Virus record (IMG/VR): IMGVR_UViG_2740892421_000003
Length of the DNA stretch: 5,743 nucleotides
DNA from: a virus
Lineage: Duplodnaviria; Heunggongvirae; Uroviricota; Caudoviricetes
Reading direction: 5' to 3' (one strand)
The position numbers and the translations under genes are program-made. Of this stretch, positions 3 to 5,743 are shown piece by piece. Under the pieces are notes generated by a model. That model ran no database searches and was not told where the DNA came from. It saw only the letters and a program-made list of their open reading frames with translations. Within the stretch, counting starts at the first letter, position 1. Each line of letters begins with the position of its first letter.

Positions 3-3000
3 TCATCGGCCTCATCGGCGTCTGCTTCAAAAGATGAGGCGACCAGACAAGCGTCAGCAGCGAAGGGCAGCGCCACGACGGCATCCACGAAGGCAACAGA
101 GGCTGCTGGCAGTGCGACGGCGGCATCTCAGAGCAAAACTACTGCTGAATCCGCTGCGACCCGTGCGGAAGCTGCTGCTGATCGTGCTGAAGAGATTGCC
201 GGTGCAGTTGCGATGGAAGACGCAAGCCTTACAACTAAAGGTGTTGTGAAACTTAGCAGTGCTGTTGATAGCACCAGTGAATCGCTGGCCGCAACGCCAA
301 AAGCAGTTAAAGCAGCCAATGACAATGCGAATAGCAGGGTGCCATCTAACCGAAAAGTTAACGGAAAAGCACTGACTGCGGATATAACATTAACGCCGAA
401 AGATATTGGTACTTTAAATTCAGTAACGATGTCTTTCTCTGGCGGGGCTGGGTGGTTCAAACTGGCTACGGTTACCATGCCACAAGCGAGTTCCATCGTT
501 TACATCGCATTGATTGGTGGCGCTGGTTACAACGTCGGTTCCCNNNNNNNNNNCACATTAACGCCGAAAGATATTGGTACTTTAAATTCAGTAACGATGT
601 CTTTCTCTGGCGGGGCAGGGTGGTTCAAACTGGCTACGGTTACCATGCCACAAGCGAGTTCCATCGTTTACATCGCATTGATTGGTGGCGCTGGTTACAA
701 CGTCGGTTCCCCACATCAGGCAGGCATTTCAGAACTGGTTCTACGAGCAGGCAATGGAAACCCCAAAGGAATTACCGGGGCTTTGTGGAAGCGTACAGCC
801 GTCGGATTAACGAATTTCGCCTGGATCAACACATCCGGCGATACATATGATATTTACGTTGAGATTGGCAATTATGCGACGAGTGTAAATATCCATTGGG
901 ATTGTACTGCAAATGCGTCAGTTTCTGTTTATACCTCGCCAACATATTCAGCGAGTAAGCCTTCCAGCGTTACCTATGGTGTTGTTTATACGATGTATAG
1001 CTCACATCAGAAACCTACACCATCAGATATTGGAGCACTGCCAACAACCGGAGGAACAGTTTCAGGTCCGTTGTCTGTTACAGGTGGATTAACTGGTTCA
1101 TTGAATGGTAATGCAAGTACAGCCACGAAATTGCAGACGGCAAGATCTATCGGTGGAGTTGTTTTCGACGGTTCTGCAAATATTAACCTTCCAGGTGTAA
1201 ACACTACGGGTAATCAGAACACCACTGGTAATGCTGCAACTGCTACAAAACTTCAGACTGCAAGAAAAATATCCGGTGTTCCATTTGATGGTTCTACTGA
1301 TATCACTTTAACCGCCGCGCATGTGGCTGCTTTTGCCAGAAGGGCAACGGATACATATGCCGATGCGGATGGTGGCGTTCCCTGGAATGCCGAATCAGGC
1401 GCTTACAATGTCACCCGCTCTGGCGACAGCTATATTCTGGTTAACTTCTATACCGGAGTCGGAAGTTGCCGGACCCTGCAGATGAAGGCGCATTACAGAA
1501 ATGGTGGTCTGTTCTACCGTTCTTCAAGAGACGGTTATGGTTTTGAGGATGACTGGGCAGAAGTTTATACCTCGAAAAATCTTCCACCAGAAAGCTACCC
1601 AGTCGGCGCACCAATCCCGTGGCCATCAGATACCGTTCCGTCTGGCTATGCCCTGATGCAGGGGCAGACTTTTGACAAATCTGCATACCCGAAACTTGCA
1701 GTGGCTTATCCGTCAGGCGTTATTCCTGATATGCGTGGCTGGACGATTAAGGGCAAGCCCGCCAGTGGTCGTGCCGTATTGTCTCAGGAACAGGACGGCA
1801 TTAAATCGCACACCCACAGCGCCAGCGCATCCAGTACGGATTTGGGGACGAAAACCACATCATCGTTTGATTACGGCACTAAATCCACGAATAACACTGG
1901 TGCACATACCCATAGTGTTAGCGGTACGGCTGCTTCAGCCGGTGCACATACCCATTCGATGACATTTGTTTCAGGTGGTTCCAGTGGTGCTCCGGGAANN
2001 NNNNNNNNAGGTGCTTTGTGGAAGCGTACAGCTGTCGGATTAGCGAATTTCGCCTGGATCAACACATCCGGCGATACATATGATATTTACGTTGAAATTG
2101 GCAATTATGCGACGAGTGTAAATATCCATTGGGATTGTACTGCAAATGCGTCAGTTTCTATTTATACATCGCCAACATATTCAGCGAGTAAGCCTTCCAG
2201 CGTTACCTATGGTGTTGTTTATACGATGTATAGCACACATCAGAAACCGACGCCGTTAGATATTGGAGCACTGCCAACAACCGGAGGAACAGTTTCAGGT
2301 CCGTTGTCTGTTACTGGTGGTATCACCGGAACATTAAATGGTAATGCAAGTACAGCAACGAAATTGCAGACGGCAAGATCTATCGGTGGAGTTGGTTTCG
2401 ACGGTTCTGCAAATATCAACCTTCCAGGTGTAAATACTACGGGTAATCAGAACACCACTGGTAATGCCGCAACTGCTACAAAACTACAGACGGCAAGAAC
2501 TATCGGCGGCGTGAGCTTTGATGGTACTGCAAATATTAATTTGCCAGGTGTTAATACGACTGGTAATCAGAATACAACAGGTAATGCGGCTACTGCTACG
2601 AAGTTGCAGACTGCGCGTACTATTAATGGGGTGTCGTTTGACGGTTCTAAAAACATTGAGCTAACTCCAAGGTCTATAGGCACGATCAACTCAGCAACAA
2701 TATCTTTTAGTGGTGGTGCCGGATGGTTCAAGCTGGCAACTGTAACCATGCCACAGGCCAGTTCCGTGGTTTACATAAGCCTGATTGGTGGTGCAGGGTA
2801 TAACGTTGGCTCCCCGCATCAAGCAGGCATCTCTGAGCTGGTTCTGCGTGCCGGAAATGGAAATCCAAAGGGTATTACTGGTGCATTATGGCGACGGACA
2901 TCGGTTGGATTTACTAATTTTGCATGGGTGAATACATCCGGTGATACCTATGATGTTTATGTTGAAATAGGTAATTACGCCACAGGTGTTAATATTCAGT

Positions 3001-5330
3001 GGGATTATACCAGTAACGCCAGCGTAACGATTCATACATCACCAACTTATACAGCGAATAAACCAACTGGTCTTACTGATGGAACGGTATATGTCATTTA
3101 CAGTTCGCACATTAAACCGACCGCCACGGATGTCGGCGCATTACCAATAACCGGAGGAAATCTCAACGGCGGTTTAACGGCTACTGGTGAGATCATTTCA
3201 AAATCGGCGAATGGTCTGCGCATTGCCTACGGAAGCTACGGATTCTTTATCCGAAACGATGGTTCAAACACATATTTCATGTTGACCAATTCGGGTAACA
3301 GCCTGGGAACCTATAATAGTTTAAGGCCGCTTATCATTAACAATGCCAATGGTGCTGTTACGATCGCTAATGGACTCAATGTTACTGGTGGCGTAAATGG
3401 TAGCTTGAATGGCAATGCTTCAACGGCTACGAAGTTGCAAACAGCGAGAAACATCAATGGTGTTAAGTTTGATGGTTCAGGCGATATCAATATTAATACA
3501 TTGGTATCTCGTGGCCGAGTTACGGCGTTAAGCGGCTCTACTCAAGGCACTGCTGGCATTCAAATGTATGAGGCGTACAACAATAGCTACCCGACCATGT
3601 ATGGCAACGTATTGCACATGAAAGGTGCGAGTGCTTCTGGTGAGGGCGAGATGCTTGTTGGCTGGAGCGGAACGGATGGTGCTCATGCACCGGTTTATGT
3701 TCGTTCACGCCGTGATACTTCGACAGCGAATTGGTCTGGTTGGGCGCAGGTCTATACCACTGCTCATAAACCCACAGCGAAAGATGTTGGGGCTGCACAG
3801 ACGTTTAGCGCGTCATACAGTACTGGGGCTGGCAACTGGACTACCGCTGAATTTATCGCATGGCTGAAGGAGCGTGGTGCTTTCGCCGTACCGTATTGGA
3901 TGATGAAAGGCTCTTGGTCATATGCCGACAATAAAATTATCACTGATACAGGTGTCGGCAATATTTGTCTTGCTGGTGCGGTTATCGAGGTTTTAGGTCA
4001 CGAAGGCGCAATGACCATCCGAGTTACTACGCCTACAACGACAACCGGAGGTGGTATTGCCAGTGCTCAGTTCACCTATATTAATCACGGTAGCGCGTAT
4101 GCCCCTGCCTGGCGCAGAGATTACAACACTGCTCTCAAACCCACTGCGGCTGATGTCGGTGCGTTACCGATTTCTGGCGGAACAATGACTGGTGTGCTGA
4201 CGCTGCAAAATGTGAGTCAGCCCCTCAAGACGCAAGGTGGAGGCATTCTGGCAAATGATGGAAATTTATACATTAATAAGTCGGGATTTGCAGGCTGGAT
4301 TGATGCGCTATTTATGAAAAACAGCGGCGGTACGATGTCCGGACAGCTTAAGATCCGCTCTACGGATGGGTTACGCATTTACGATGCGGCATACGGGATG
4401 ATTTTTCGCCGTTCCGAAAATAATTTTTACCTTATCCCGACAGCAAAAGACCAGGGAGAAAATGGTGATATAGGTTCGCTTCGTCCATTTTATGTAGATC
4501 TCACTAATGGCAGAGTAACAATGGGCAATGGTGCTGTTGTTAACGGTGGTCTTGGGCTGGGTGTGGTCAATGGTCTTGGCGGTAATTCCATTGTTCTGGG
4601 TGACAATGACACCGGCTTTAAACAGAACGGAGATGGCATTCTGGATGTTTACGCCAATAGCGCCCATGTTTTTAGGTTCGTTAATAGCACGCTGCAAAGC
4701 CTTAAGCCGTTGAGTGTAACGGGTGACATCACGTCAAGTGCGTGGGTTTACGCCAACCGTTTTTCCATCAACAGCGGCTCTGGCGCGTGGATAGATATGC
4801 GTAACCAGAACGTCATCTTCGGGAGGAACGCTGTAAGTACAAGCTCTGCACAAGCGTTGTTGAGACAAGACCACGCGGATCGCAAATTCTTCTTGGGTGG
4901 CTTGGGAAACAGTCAGTTTGGTTTTTACATGATCAACAACTCACGTACCGCAAACGGCACTGACGCTGCCGCTTATCTCCAGAACGACGGCACTTGGGTT
5001 TGCGCAGGCAACGGTAGTTTTAATGACGTTTACATCCGTTCCGACCGCCGTAGTAAGCGCAATATTCGCAAAATTGAGCGGGCGCTCGACAAGCTGGAGC
5101 AGATCGAAGGTGTTCTCTACGAGATTCAGGTCTGTGGCCGTTATGAGCAGTCTGGCGGCCTCATCGCTCAGGACGTCCAGAATGTTCAGCCTGAACTGGT
5201 AACGGTTGACCATAACGATCAGTCAGGAGAGCCTCGTCTGCGTCTTAACTACAACGGCGTTATCGGCATGTTGGTCGAGGCTGTCAAAGAGCTGCGCGAG
5301 GAAGTGCGCGAACTGAAGGCAAAAATGTAA
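3..5330 (+). CDS. Long (side) tail fibre protein, mosaic, with C-terminal intramolecular chaperone domain; 5'-partial (continues upstream of window); spans two N-run gaps
   Basis: Frame +3 has no stop codon from nt 3 to TAA at 5328-5330 (1775 sense codons in window). Translation upstream of the track's ATG at 213 reads [70 protein letters not shown], a typical fibre shaft, so 213 is an internal Met. Contains the Stf-type motif [25 protein letters not shown], 40-aa tail-fibre repeats, a tail-collar-like block, HTHS motifs, and an S-D-x-x-x-K C-terminal domain. Family call from memory, not a search. Confidence 0.9.
237..311 (+). other. Conserved side-tail-fibre motif ([25 protein letters not shown]), as recalled from lambda Stf and relatives
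   Basis: Direct translation of frame +3. The motif and preceding Ala/Ser/Thr-rich stretch resemble the central region of lambda Stf as I recall it (..[25 protein letters not shown]..). Confidence 0.7.
387..711 (+). repeat. Tandem direct repeat: 157-nt unit (387-543) repeated at 555-711, period 168 nt, copies separated by the 10-N run
   Basis: Both copies encode [52 protein letters not shown]. By manual alignment there is one mismatch (T449 vs A617, GCT vs GCA, synonymous). Confidence 0.85.
544..553. other. Run of 10 N (assembly gap or masked bases) inside the tail fibre ORF
   Basis: Literal nnnnnnnnnn in the sequence; flanked on both sides by the same 157-nt repeat unit. Confidence 0.99.
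778..1265 (+). repeat. Long direct repeat, copy A (~488 nt; partner at 2011-2498, in-frame offset 1233 nt)
   Basis: Manual alignment gives about 28 mismatches in about 488 positions (about 94% identity; needs computational confirmation). Encodes [49 protein letters not shown]...[17 protein letters not shown]...[12 protein letters not shown]. Confidence 0.85.
1101..1320 (+). repeat. Two tandem copies of the ~40-aa phage tail-fibre repeat (120-nt period)
   Basis: [43 protein letters not shown] followed by [27 protein letters not shown]. The GGT-AAT-GCx starts at 1107 and 1227 are exactly 120 nt apart. Confidence 0.8.
1599..1998 (+). other. Tail-collar-like domain followed by three His-x-His (HTHS) motifs; a lambda-Stf-type distal receptor-binding region found here in the middle of the ORF
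   Basis: [133 protein letters not shown]. Matches my recollection of the C-terminal region of lambda Stf and of tail-collar domains (..LPDMRGW..). The block ends exactly at the second N run. Confidence 0.75.
1999..2008. other. Run of 10 N (assembly gap or masked bases) inside the tail fibre ORF
   Basis: Literal N run. Left flank is the end of the HxH block; right flank starts in the middle of the repeated module (GALWKRT...). Confidence 0.99.
2011..2498 (+). repeat. Long direct repeat, copy B (partner of 778-1265)
   Basis: Same manual alignment as copy A. Protein differs at only about 7-8 residues (for example LTNF/LANF, SVSVY/SVSIY, TPSDIG/TPLDIG, GGVVFDG/GGVGFDG). Confidence 0.85.
2334..2680 (+). 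repeat. Three tandem copies of the ~40-aa tail-fibre repeat (120-nt period; units start near 2340, 2460, 2580)
   Basis: ..[40 protein letters not shown] / [40 protein letters not shown] / [27 protein letters not shown]. Nucleotide copies are diverged, mostly at synonymous positions. Confidence 0.85.
2664..3158 (+). repeat. Third, diverged copy of the ~230-aa fibre module (TPRSIG...[18 protein letters not shown]...[10 protein letters not shown]...[16 protein letters not shown]...[17 protein letters not shown])
   Basis: Collinear at protein level with 387-1058. Nucleotide sequence is clearly more diverged than the A/B pair (roughly three quarters identical by eye, not computed). Confidence 0.75.
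3213..4580 (+). other. Distal fibre region with two related units of about 60-70 aa (3213-3400 and 4368-4580; pattern GLRI..Y..G..FR....N.YF..T.....G...SLRP......NG.VT..NG) and small domains each ending in a KPT..D.GA junction
   Basis: [54 protein letters not shown] versus [55 protein letters not shown]. Protein-level similarity only; no nucleotide repeat. Confidence 0.5.
3405..3500 (+). repeat. Sixth, isolated copy of the 40-aa tail-fibre repeat
   Basis: [31 protein letters not shown] in frame +3. Confidence 0.75.
5040..5327 (+). other. C-terminal intramolecular chaperone / autoproteolytic domain (endosialidase-chaperone, peptidase S74-like); predicted cleavage after Ser encoded at 5040-5042, Lys at 5055-5057
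   Basis: Translation ..[102 protein letters not shown]. The S-D-x-x-x-K spacing and the GLIAQDV / LNYNGVIG / terminal helix signature match the self-cleaving C-terminal domains of phage K1F endosialidase and T5 pb1 as I recall them. Confidence 0.8.
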
Positions 5331-5336
5331 TCAAGG

Positions 5337-5366
5337 TGAATGGTGAGGGGCCACCCTCACCATTCA
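5337..5366 (+). terminator. Perfect hairpin (13-bp stem, 4-nt GCCA loop) 6 nt after the fibre stop codon; possible terminator or attenuator lacking a canonical U-tract
   Basis: TGAATGGTGAGGG-GCCA-CCCTCACCATTCA; all 13 positions pair (7 G:C). Downstream sequence is GGATATTCACATC, not a T run. Confidence 0.45.
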
Positions 5367-5382
5367 GGATATTCACATCAAA

Positions 5383-5388
5383 AAGGAG
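5383..5388 (+). promoter_or_regulatory. Shine-Dalgarno sequence (AAGGAG) for the downstream gene
   Basis: AAGGAG sits 7 nt upstream of GTG at 5396 (5 nt upstream of the out-of-frame ATG at 5394). Confidence 0.6.
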
Positions 5389-5395
5389 ATTAGAT

Positions 5396-5743
5396 GTGCC
5401 AATTGTCGGTGTTCCCGGTTGGATTGGGTCTTCGGCTGTCAGTGTGACAGGCCAGAGATGGATGAGTGCGGCTCGAACGGCGGTGCAACTGCCAGCGGCT
5501 GGTTCAATGTCTCAAATGGCCGGGCGATCTAAAGAAGTTCAGTACAGCATCGGTGCGAATCATAACTACAACAAAGACACACTGATCAACTATTTAAAAT
5601 CCCAGGGGGCGACGCCAGTCGTTGTTACCATTACAGGGGATCTGGTGTCGTCCAGTAGCGGCGTGCCATGTTTAGATTTCCCGAGTTCACTTACCAACTC
5701 TTATATCAGCCTTGTAATCAACGCAGGTGTGACTGTCTATGGA
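5396..5743 (+). CDS. Hypothetical phage protein, GTG start, 3'-partial (runs off window); function unknown
   Basis: Frame +2 is open from GTG 5396 to the window end (116 codons, no stop): (M)PIVGVPGWIGSSAVSVTGQRWMSAARTAVQLPAAGSMSQMAGRSKEVQYSIGANHNYNKDTLINYLKSQGATPVVVTITGDLVSSSSGVPCLDFPSSLTNSYISLVINAGVTVYG. The overlapping ATG at 5394 is in another frame and stops after 17 codons. Missing from the ORF track because it has no ATG start and no stop in window. Confidence 0.6.
   Translation, partial: MPIVGVPGWIGSSAVSVTGQRWMSAARTAVQLPAAGSMSQMAGRSKEVQYSIGANHNYNKDTLINYLKSQGATPVVVTITGDLVSSSSGVPCLDFPSSLTNSYISLVINAGVTVYG

Follow-up and report, generated by a model that had tools for sequence, protein, structure and literature searches.

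Tail fibres of the S16/T2 type carry a separate adhesin, gp38, that caps the cleaved tip of gp37, and three conserved tryptophans lie at the apex of the attachment-domain helices of S16 gp38 (PMC6851490). The L-shaped fibre of T5 follows another plan, in which the receptor is bound by a bullet-shaped domain of pb1 that directly precedes the chaperone, and the cleavage dyad is defined as Ser1264/Lys1269 (PMC4690869). Mu fibres recognise the LPS core (PMC11821841).

We analysed a stretch of 5,743 nucleotides (the window) from a virus of the Caudoviricetes, IMG/VR record IMGVR_UViG_2740892421_000003. A first-pass annotation of the letters alone had described 3159-5039 as the distal half of a fibre gene and proposed that the segment just before the chaperone cleavage site, 4580-5039, determines host specificity. 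In our analysis, homology and gene order indicate that 3159-5039 most likely forms the distal part of the shaft, with the docking tip, in a phage-plasmid tail fibre of the SSU5 type. The determinant of host choice is most likely a separate gene for a gp38-type adhesin, not the pre-cleavage segment of the fibre. The fibre belongs to a siphovirus-like phage-plasmid rather than to a T-even phage.

Organisation of the fibre gene

A single plus-strand ORF, 213-5330, spans the whole of 3159-5039, which encodes aa 983-1609. The length of this ORF is unreliable because it holds two N10 scaffold joins (544-553 and 1999-2008), and the 94 bases preceding the first join reappear exactly after it, so the earlier count of a third module copy upstream of the distal half is unsafe. 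Minus-strand ORFs in the region (e.g. 4371-4697 and 3538-3798) were dismissed, as they lie without support inside strongly conserved plus-strand coding sequence. The features, all on the plus strand, are as follows.

3159..3401, +, lead-in and unit 1 (aa 983-1063), a Gp34_trimer-type module carrying a GLRI...SLRP...NGAVT unit
3402..3494, +, further copy of a 14-residue motif of the proximal half (aa 1064-1094)
3495..3779, +, small internal domain (aa 1095-1189) inside the region aligned to T4 gp34, with YVRSRRD...W..VYT and a KPTAKDVGA linker at its end
3780..4160, +, internal domain (aa 1190-1316) very similar to residues 222-323 of Mu S' (gp52; 8ju3)
4161..4367, +, linker (aa 1317-1385) within a second Gp34_trimer-type copy, from self-comparison
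4368..4577, +, unit 2 (aa 1386-1455), a second GLRI...SLRP...NGRVT unit, from its similarity to unit 1
4578..4736, +, tipA (aa 1456-1508), a GDNDTG-type five-strand sheet aligning to S16 gp37 chain residues 24-55
4737..5039, +, tipB (aa 1509-1609), a conserved neck of the Mu/P1 S type (Mu S 336-445, E = 3.9e-36)
5040..5330, +, intramolecular chaperone (aa 1610-1705) and stop codon, from Pfam Peptidase_S74 and the S16 gp37 alignment
5337..5366, +, perfect 13-bp hairpin between the fibre and adhesin genes, from folding energy
5396..5743, +, 5' part of a gp38-type adhesin gene, running off the window end, from Pfam Gp38_N and GP38 and a match to S16 gp38

By homology, 3159-5039 is built of modules common to Mu/P1 S and S', T4 gp34, P2 H and T-even gp37. 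Internal repeats of the fibre protein were mapped by chunked BLAST self-comparison, in which the large proximal module copies stop near aa 1000. The distal half is distinct in that aa 983-1609 differ from the proximal repeats, but the separation is incomplete: the 14-residue motif recurs, with aa 1050-1113 matching aa 282-345, 693-756 and 779-837, and KPTAxDVGALP linkers are also present in the proximal half.

The two GLRI units, unit 1 at 3213-3401 (aa 1001-1063) and unit 2 at 4368-4577, had been taken as an internal duplication. They are related, with 35-40% identity (BLASTP 35%, E = 6e-11) and a Smith-Waterman score of 101 against 28.9 +/- 5.6 for 2000 shuffles (z = 12.9). The similarity reaches further in the chunked self-BLAST, where aa 963-1067 match aa 1304-1454 and, within this, aa 963-1039 match aa 1304-1425; the second Gp34_trimer-type copy extends in full over aa 1304-1455. 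Pfam Gp34_trimer (PF21446) scores 112 bits against a gathering score of 27 over three stretches of the fibre, which cover both GLRI units and their KPTAxDVGA lead-ins; the best stretch is aa 984-1042, and the N-terminal part of the model matches weakly at aa 1284-1317, inside the Mu S'-like domain and just upstream of the linker. The lead-in and unit 1 also align to the C-terminal region of T4 gp34, and P1 DNA is 85% identical to this region. Unit 1 resembles Mu S 268-338 (5yvq) far more closely, at about 79% identity, than it resembles unit 2, at 35-40%. Duplication in situ was rejected for this reason, and the two units are better read as separately acquired, diverged members of a widespread fibre module.

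Between the units lie two further parts of uneven distribution. The small internal domain also matches Mu S' weakly in a second place, at residues 383-419, and is 71-100% identical in the ten relatives that have it; it was not detected in relatives L009 and L011. The alignment to Mu S' spans aa 1116-1316, with aa 1207-1316 highly similar to S' 222-323. This Mu S'-like domain is 93-96% identical in SSU5 and in five of the plasmids, 66% in L009 and 42-48% in three otherwise near-identical plasmids, with no match in two relatives; in its distribution it behaves like a swappable cassette. Among otherwise near-identical plasmids the Mu S'-like domain (42-96%) and unit 1 with its lead-in (38-79% among close relatives) are the most divergent distal parts, as would be expected if these cassettes formed a lateral second specificity site that added to host range beside gp38. 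We consider such a site improbable, since shaft modules are often exchanged in mosaic fashion, which may have no functional meaning, and the Mu S' counterpart is mid-fibre, at residues 222-323 of 488.

The pre-cleavage tip

The segment of about 150 residues before the cleavage site had been regarded as unique. Pfam gives no match within 4578-5039. The segment is not unique and has hundreds of homologues, including S16 gp37, P2 H, T-even gp37 and Mu S. TipA (53 aa) is common to S16 gp37, P2 H and T-even gp37. TipB (101 aa) shares about 70% identity with Mu S over residues 336-430, with the Mu S homology ending at about aa 1600, and is 54-77% identical among Mu-like, P1-like and SSU5-like fibres. 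The tip aligns to S16 gp37 in two stretches (overall E = 2.3e-18) separated by an insertion of about 87 aa; in the second, the 27 residues that precede Ser1610 (aa 1583-1609) pair with residues 64-93 of the S16 gp37 chain. The fibre tip is thus homologous to the triangular and interdigitated domains of S16 gp37, and these last 27 residues of tipB, corresponding to the S16-type pre-cleavage strands, are proposed as a putative adhesin dock. The AF2 model, of the monomer only, is globally poor (pLDDT 73, pTM 0.37; low confidence at aa 1499-1545) and was used solely for secondary structure and domain-level Foldseek matches. It predicts five strands at aa 1460-1496, in tipA, and the predicted tip matches 6f45 chains A-C with TM 0.63-0.66.

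Few parts of the fibre are as conserved as the tip. The comparison covered SSU5 (Salmonella) and nine plasmids from Escherichia coli, Enterobacter hormaechei, E. cloacae and Citrobacter freundii. Identity is 98% for tipA and 97% for tipB in SSU5 and 92-100% in eight of the plasmids, while the ninth, L010, has 72% in tipA and 88% in tipB; apart from that 72%, the values lie within 88-100%. TipA is 92-100% identical in nine relatives and absent from relatives L011 and L012; tipB is 88-98% identical in SSU5-like elements and 62-64% in an Aeromonas plasmid and L012. At least 90% identity over the whole of 4578-5039 occurs in 65 plasmid records, and the full tip is found in 85 records against 87 for the gp38 N-terminus. 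The first-pass annotation had named strong conservation across phages of differing host range as a result that would speak against its proposal, and such conservation is what the relatives show. Many Gly, Phe and Tyr positions of tipB are strictly invariant and look structural.

Chaperone and proposed cleavage site

Pfam Peptidase_S74 (PF13884) matches the fibre C-terminus with 44.4 bits (gathering cutoff 22), aligning aa 1610-1664 to model positions 1-58. Model position 1 is Ser1610 (nt 5040), and the sequence S1610-D-R-R-S-K1615 has the form Ser-x4-Lys, that is, a Ser/Lys(+5) dyad. By analogy, Ser1610 is proposed as the putative scissile residue and Lys1615 as its partner, which agrees with the cleavage site placed at 5039/5040 by the first-pass annotation. 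The chaperone gives a confident AF2 model with a terminal helix, and its Foldseek matches are the MyRF ICA and the endosialidase chaperone.

The homology supports placing 4578-5039 at the far end of the mature fibre chain. This position, together with the T5 precedent and the location of tipB inside the invertible, host-range-switching part of the Mu and P1 S genes, favours the original proposal that 4578-5039 is itself a receptor-binding, host-specificity domain as in pb1. We find that proposal highly unlikely. Leaving aside L010 tipA, elements of four host genera have the tip conserved at 88-100%, the fibre gene is followed by a dedicated gp38 adhesin gene, and the variation resides in the hypervariable block of gp38. 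In Mu/P1-type fibres, too, the variation lies after tipB and not in it, with a mean pairwise identity of 0.57 in the 77-95 residues after tipB against 0.71 in tipB. The underlying rule that the binding tip lies just upstream of the cleavage site holds for T5 pb1 but not for S16/T2-type fibres, in which a separate protein caps the tip.

The downstream adhesin gene

A gp38-type gene with an N-terminal attachment domain lies directly 3' of the fibre gene. It starts at a GTG at 5396 with AGGAG 7 nt upstream, about 65 nt after the fibre stop. Its product matches Pfam Gp38_N (1.5e-15, 57.4 bits, cutoff 25) and GP38 (1.8e-26, also above cutoff), and S16 gp38 (6f45_D) at 3e-20. Two of the three attachment-domain tryptophans of S16 are present (GWIGSS and QRWMS) and the third aligns to Ser in AAGSMSQM; the SSU5 adhesin retains all three.

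Relatives carry full-length gp38 homologues of 260-262 aa with poly-Gly motifs and hypervariable segments. These were seen in L002, L004 and L005, which share their first 116 residues with the window, whose own such motifs would lie beyond its end. An alignment of eight gp38 proteins gives a pairwise identity of 94% over the N-terminal 120 residues and of 53% over the hypervariable block, and this block can be aligned in no more than about 20 of 76 plasmid records, all from E. coli. SSU5 has a 97-98% identical tip yet a 178-aa adhesin sharing only Gp38_N, which indicates swapping of adhesins on a constant dock. L012 pairs the SSU5 adhesin with a tipB that is only 64% identical; docking, if it occurs, may rely chiefly on the last 20-75 residues. 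The layout of tipB, S74 chaperone and gp38 is also found in the Morganella T4-like phage vB_Mm5.

The 76-nt stretch holding the intergenic hairpin has a minimum free energy of -29.6 kcal/mol (z = -4.4). A promoter and terminator scan of 5200-5500 found neither, and a terminator call for the hairpin was rejected as it has no T-run. L007, L008 and L009 have different yet self-complementary sequences at the same intergenic place.

Proposed mechanism

The sequences show homology, gene order and a pattern of conservation; from these we infer cleavage, docking and the receptor-touching residues, and we think it likely that the chaperone is cut off, that gp38 docks on the exposed tip and that its loops bind the receptor. 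The C-terminal Peptidase_S74 chaperone (aa 1610-1705) would nucleate trimer folding from the C-terminus and then cleave itself off between Arg1609 and Ser1610. This would expose tipA and tipB (4578-5039), a conserved platform on which a single gp38-type adhesin would be held by its N-terminal attachment domain. The Gly-rich hypervariable loops of gp38, encoded past the window end, would bind the host receptor and set specificity.

Against this model count the missing third attachment-domain tryptophan, the roughly 87 extra tip residues, in tipB, relative to S16 gp37, the divergent tipB that accompanies the SSU5 adhesin in L012, and the at best moderate quality of the AF2 monomer.

TipB might itself bind something, as the distal region of the Mu fibre binds LPS. 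In a two-tier scheme it would be a conserved, low-specificity LPS-core module of Mu, P1 and SSU5-type fibres that makes a reversible first contact, to which gp38 adds a specific one. The sharing of tipB by Mu-like, P1-like and SSU5-like fibres and the recognition of LPS core by Mu fibres speak for such a scheme; P1 and SSU5, too, are reported to use the LPS core. Residue-level evidence for an LPS site in Mu 336-430 was, however, not found in a limited literature search, the invariance of tipB looks structural, and a gp38 cap would sit directly beyond tipB after maturation; we therefore rate two-tier binding as unlikely. If it were true, the covarying intergenic hairpin could tune a 3:1 fibre-to-adhesin ratio.

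If gp38 confers specificity, as in the model we prefer, the part to read or swap in predicting or engineering the host range of SSU5-like elements is the gp38 hypervariable block and not the pre-cleavage segment, and the conserved tip would be useful as a universal dock for exchanging adhesins. Phage-plasmids of this SSU5-like kind are common among E. coli, Enterobacter, Citrobacter and Salmonella, and resistance genes are present on some of them.

Comparison with known fibre systems

The arrangement is already known from the S16/T2 type and from SSU5-like elements, and the current understanding of fibre biology is unchanged by these results. With the long tail fibre tip of Salmonella phage S16 (T2/T6 type), a gp37 trimer bearing gp38 as its cap (PDB 6F45), the locus shares a C-terminal S74 chaperone on the fibre, the GDNDTG five-strand tip, homologous pre-cleavage strands and a gp38 gene immediately downstream with a Gp38_N attachment domain and a GP38 domain. 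It differs in the Mu S-like tipB residues inserted between the two S16-like tip pieces, in the Ser at the third attachment-domain Trp, and in having one long mosaic fibre protein rather than a gp34-37 set.

The T5 fibre likewise has a C-terminal intramolecular chaperone with a Ser/Lys(+5) cleavage dyad, but in T5 receptor binding falls to the domain that precedes the cut, with no separate adhesin, whereas here a conserved tip is followed by an adhesin gene. Ahead of the chaperone no sequence similarity to pb1 was seen, and the PDB matches did not include pb1.

Unit 1, tipB and the S'-like domain are homologous to parts of Mu S (gp49, PDB 5YVQ), Mu S' (gp52, 8JU3) and P1 S. The fibres of Mu and P1 end in a variable head of 77-95 aa and need a separate Tfa (U) protein, whereas here an S74 chaperone and gp38 replace the variable head and Tfa. 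The Tfa-dependent layout, a head ending in ...QKYINGTWYNV with a Tfa (U) gene downstream, is displayed by RCS47 and SfMu and is not seen in the window.

The closest counterparts are the SSU5 fibre SSU5_021 with its adhesin SSU5_022 and the SSU5-like phage-plasmids of Enterobacteriaceae, which have the same gene order. Identity to SSU5 is 97-98% in the tip, 92% in the chaperone and 64% overall in the distal half. The proximal modules differ, and the SSU5 adhesin, 178 aa with only Gp38_N, overlaps the fibre stop codon, whereas the window adhesin, judged by its homologues, is of the 260-aa poly-Gly type and follows a 65-nt spacer with a hairpin.

Organisation of the distal fibre

The region from 3159 to 5039 corresponds to residues 983-1609 of the tail fibre. 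The anatomy of the fibre's distal half was read from PDB sequence searches, and is listed here with the neighbouring features.

Features of the fibre and adhesin region (nt, window positions; aa, fibre residues)
nt 213-5330, + strand: tail fibre, one long ORF
aa 983-1063, + strand: unit 1, resembling Mu S and the C-terminal region of T4 gp34
aa 1064-1094, + strand: repeat copy
aa 1095-1189, + strand: small domain
aa 1190-1316, + strand: Mu S'-like domain, closely resembling Mu S' 222-323
aa 1317-1385, + strand: linker
aa 1386-1455, + strand: unit 2
aa 1456-1508, + strand: tipA, aligning to S16 gp37 chain residues 24-55
aa 1509-1609, + strand: tipB, aligning to Mu S 336-445
aa 1610-1705, + strand: chaperone, Peptidase_S74
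nt 5337-5366: perfect 13-bp hairpin between fibre stop and gp38 start
nt 5396-5743, + strand: 5' part of gp38-type adhesin ORF; GTG start preceded by AGGAG; runs off the window end

The fibre frame (frame 3) is already open from window base 3, with 1-212 coding for an Ala-rich stretch, so the ATG at 213 is probably internal and the true start upstream of the window. The fibre CDS of one comparison locus (L002) begins ~1150 bases before the point aligned to window base 1. Two N10 runs inside the ORF (544-553 and 1999-2008) are probably scaffold joins. The first is flanked by an exact 94-base recurrence (450-543 = 618-711; residues 59-110 = residues 115-166), and at the second a collar/HxH region meets the middle of a module copy. 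Among complete plasmid and E. coli genome records, none covers as much as 80% of the window at a single site. Because of these runs, the exact repeat and the lack of a single covering record, the 1705-aa length and the proximal module-copy count ('three module copies') are probably unreliable products of scaffolding.

The first-pass annotation described the distal half as a distinct module with an internal duplication of two GLRI...SLRP...NG.VT units. The units are indeed related (35% identity, BLASTP E = 6e-11; Smith-Waterman score 101 versus 28.9 +/- 5.6 in 2000 shuffles), and their similarity spans residues 963-1067 versus 1304-1454, a region that Pfam Gp34_trimer matches in three stretches (112 bits). 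Because unit 1 is ~79% identical to Mu S 268-338 and just 35-40% to unit 2, they appear to have been acquired separately, as members of a fibre module that is widespread, rather than duplicated locally. Distinctness holds in part: the large proximal module copies stop near residue 1000 in a self-comparison in chunks, but the [14 protein letters not shown] repeat and KPTAxDVGALP linkers occur in both halves alike.

Unit 1 (3213-3401) and the Mu S'-like domain (3780-4160) are the most divergent distal parts between otherwise near-identical plasmids (identities of 38-79% and 42-96%, respectively, across twelve fetched loci), which suggests cassette exchange at Gp34_trimer-type units. These variable internal cassettes might add lateral specificity, although we consider this improbable.

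Composition and conservation of the tip

The ~150-aa segment before the cleavage site had been called unique, but tipA and tipB each align to known fibres, so it consists of two modules, both widely shared. TipA is also common to P2 H and T-even gp37. TipB matches Mu S with E = 3.9e-36, and P1-like RCS47 and D6, SfMu and a Morganella T4-like phage carry it at 54-77% identity. The 27 residues at its end align to the S16 gp37 strands right before the cleavage site. More than 1700 database proteins match a tip-plus-chaperone query. The chaperone boundary stands as annotated, with Peptidase_S74 beginning at Ser1610 (nt 5040), where SDRRSK supplies the Ser/Lys(+5) pair that in T5 pb1 is Ser1264/Lys1269 (PMC4690869).

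An AF2 monomer model (pLDDT 73, pTM 0.37) gives tipA five strands and places five more at residues 1546-1598; its confidence is low at 1499-1545 and good in the chaperone, which carries a terminal helix. Foldseek matched it to 5yvq_A (E = 7e-10), to tip chains of S16 gp37 (TM 0.63-0.66) and to MyRF and endosialidase chaperones. The window fibre tip is ~87 residues longer than that of S16.

The same segment (4580-5039) had been proposed as the host-specificity determinant, and conservation across relatives, the refuting condition named with that proposal, speaks against this. TipA and tipB are 98 and 97% identical in Salmonella phage SSU5 and 92-100% identical in eight of nine plasmids of E. 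coli, Enterobacter hormaechei, E. cloacae and Citrobacter freundii, the ninth (L010) having 72 and 88%. Over the 75 residues directly preceding the cut there is almost no variation, even in an Aeromonas plasmid. Of the 85 plasmid records with the whole tip, 65 have it at >=90% identity. That tipB makes generic LPS contacts appears unlikely.

The gp38-type adhesin

Between the fibre stop codon and the adhesin GTG lie 65 bases, and the 116 in-window residues of the adhesin match Pfam Gp38_N (1.5e-15), GP38 (1.8e-26) and S16 gp38 (3e-20). S16 gp38 is a monomeric adhesin whose N-terminal helical domain plugs into the cleaved gp37 tip base and whose distal loops have been put forward as the receptor-binding part (PMC6851490; PMC12032242). 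In relatives the gene is annotated 'receptor-recognizing protein' or 'tail fiber adhesin', and full-length homologues, 260-262 aa long, contain variable segments and runs of poly-glycine. The N-terminus is present in 87 records, whereas the E. coli-type hypervariable block is alignable in only ~20 of 76, all E. coli; mean pairwise identity among eight aligned proteins is 94% in the first 120 residues versus 53% in that block. Since SSU5 has the same tip yet a 178-aa adhesin sharing the Gp38_N domain only, the comparison suggests that the dock stays constant while adhesins are exchanged on it. This short adhesin, with an unrelated C-terminal part (SSU5_022, L001 6701-7237), recurs in locus L012 (5130-5666) on a fibre with tipB only 64% identical and without tipA.

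Of three attachment-domain tryptophans that are reportedly conserved in gp38 proteins, the window adhesin retains two, the third (residues ~33-40) being replaced by Ser (AAGSMSQM, versus PFWISS in S16 and PFWMS in SSU5) despite SSU5 and window fibre tips being 97-98% identical. The homologue in E. cloacae pG6809-1 (L008 5309-5893) is cut to 194 aa with an out-of-frame tail past the poly-Gly run, which looks like a frameshift in or near homopolymeric glycine codons. The hairpin's 76-nt stretch has an MFE of -29.6 kcal/mol (z = -4.4) without a T-run; L007/L008 and L009 carry other, still self-complementary sequences there, whereas in SSU5-type loci the two genes overlap (TGATG) and the hairpin is missing. 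The hairpin may influence mRNA stability or the ratio of fibre to adhesin expression.

By analogy with S16 and T5, a four-step mechanism is quite likely, in which the S74 domain would drive C-terminal trimerisation and then be removed at Arg1609/Ser1610, after which gp38 would dock on the exposed fibre tip and its loops would bind the receptor. The extra tip residues relative to S16 and the missing tryptophan are caveats to this mechanism. The main value of the analysis is to move attention from 4578-5039 to the adhesin gene, most of which lies past the window end.

Comparison with other fibres

The arrangement of an S74 fibre with a gp38 adhesin is already known, a previously deposited plasmid matches residues 1054-1705 at 96.9% identity, and the finding is an ordinary one. 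In Mu/P1-type fibres, what comes after tipB is instead a head of 77-95 aa and then a Tfa gene, the head being more variable than tipB (mean pairwise identity 0.57 versus 0.71). In Morganella T4-like phage vB_Mm5 (L013 3605-5201), a fibre gene with tipB and S74 precedes two tandem gp38-type genes, both annotated 'receptor-recognizing protein', the Pfam comparison covering the first only. Because either a more variable Mu/P1 head or S74 plus gp38 comes next, tipB is a conserved neck before whichever terminal device binds.
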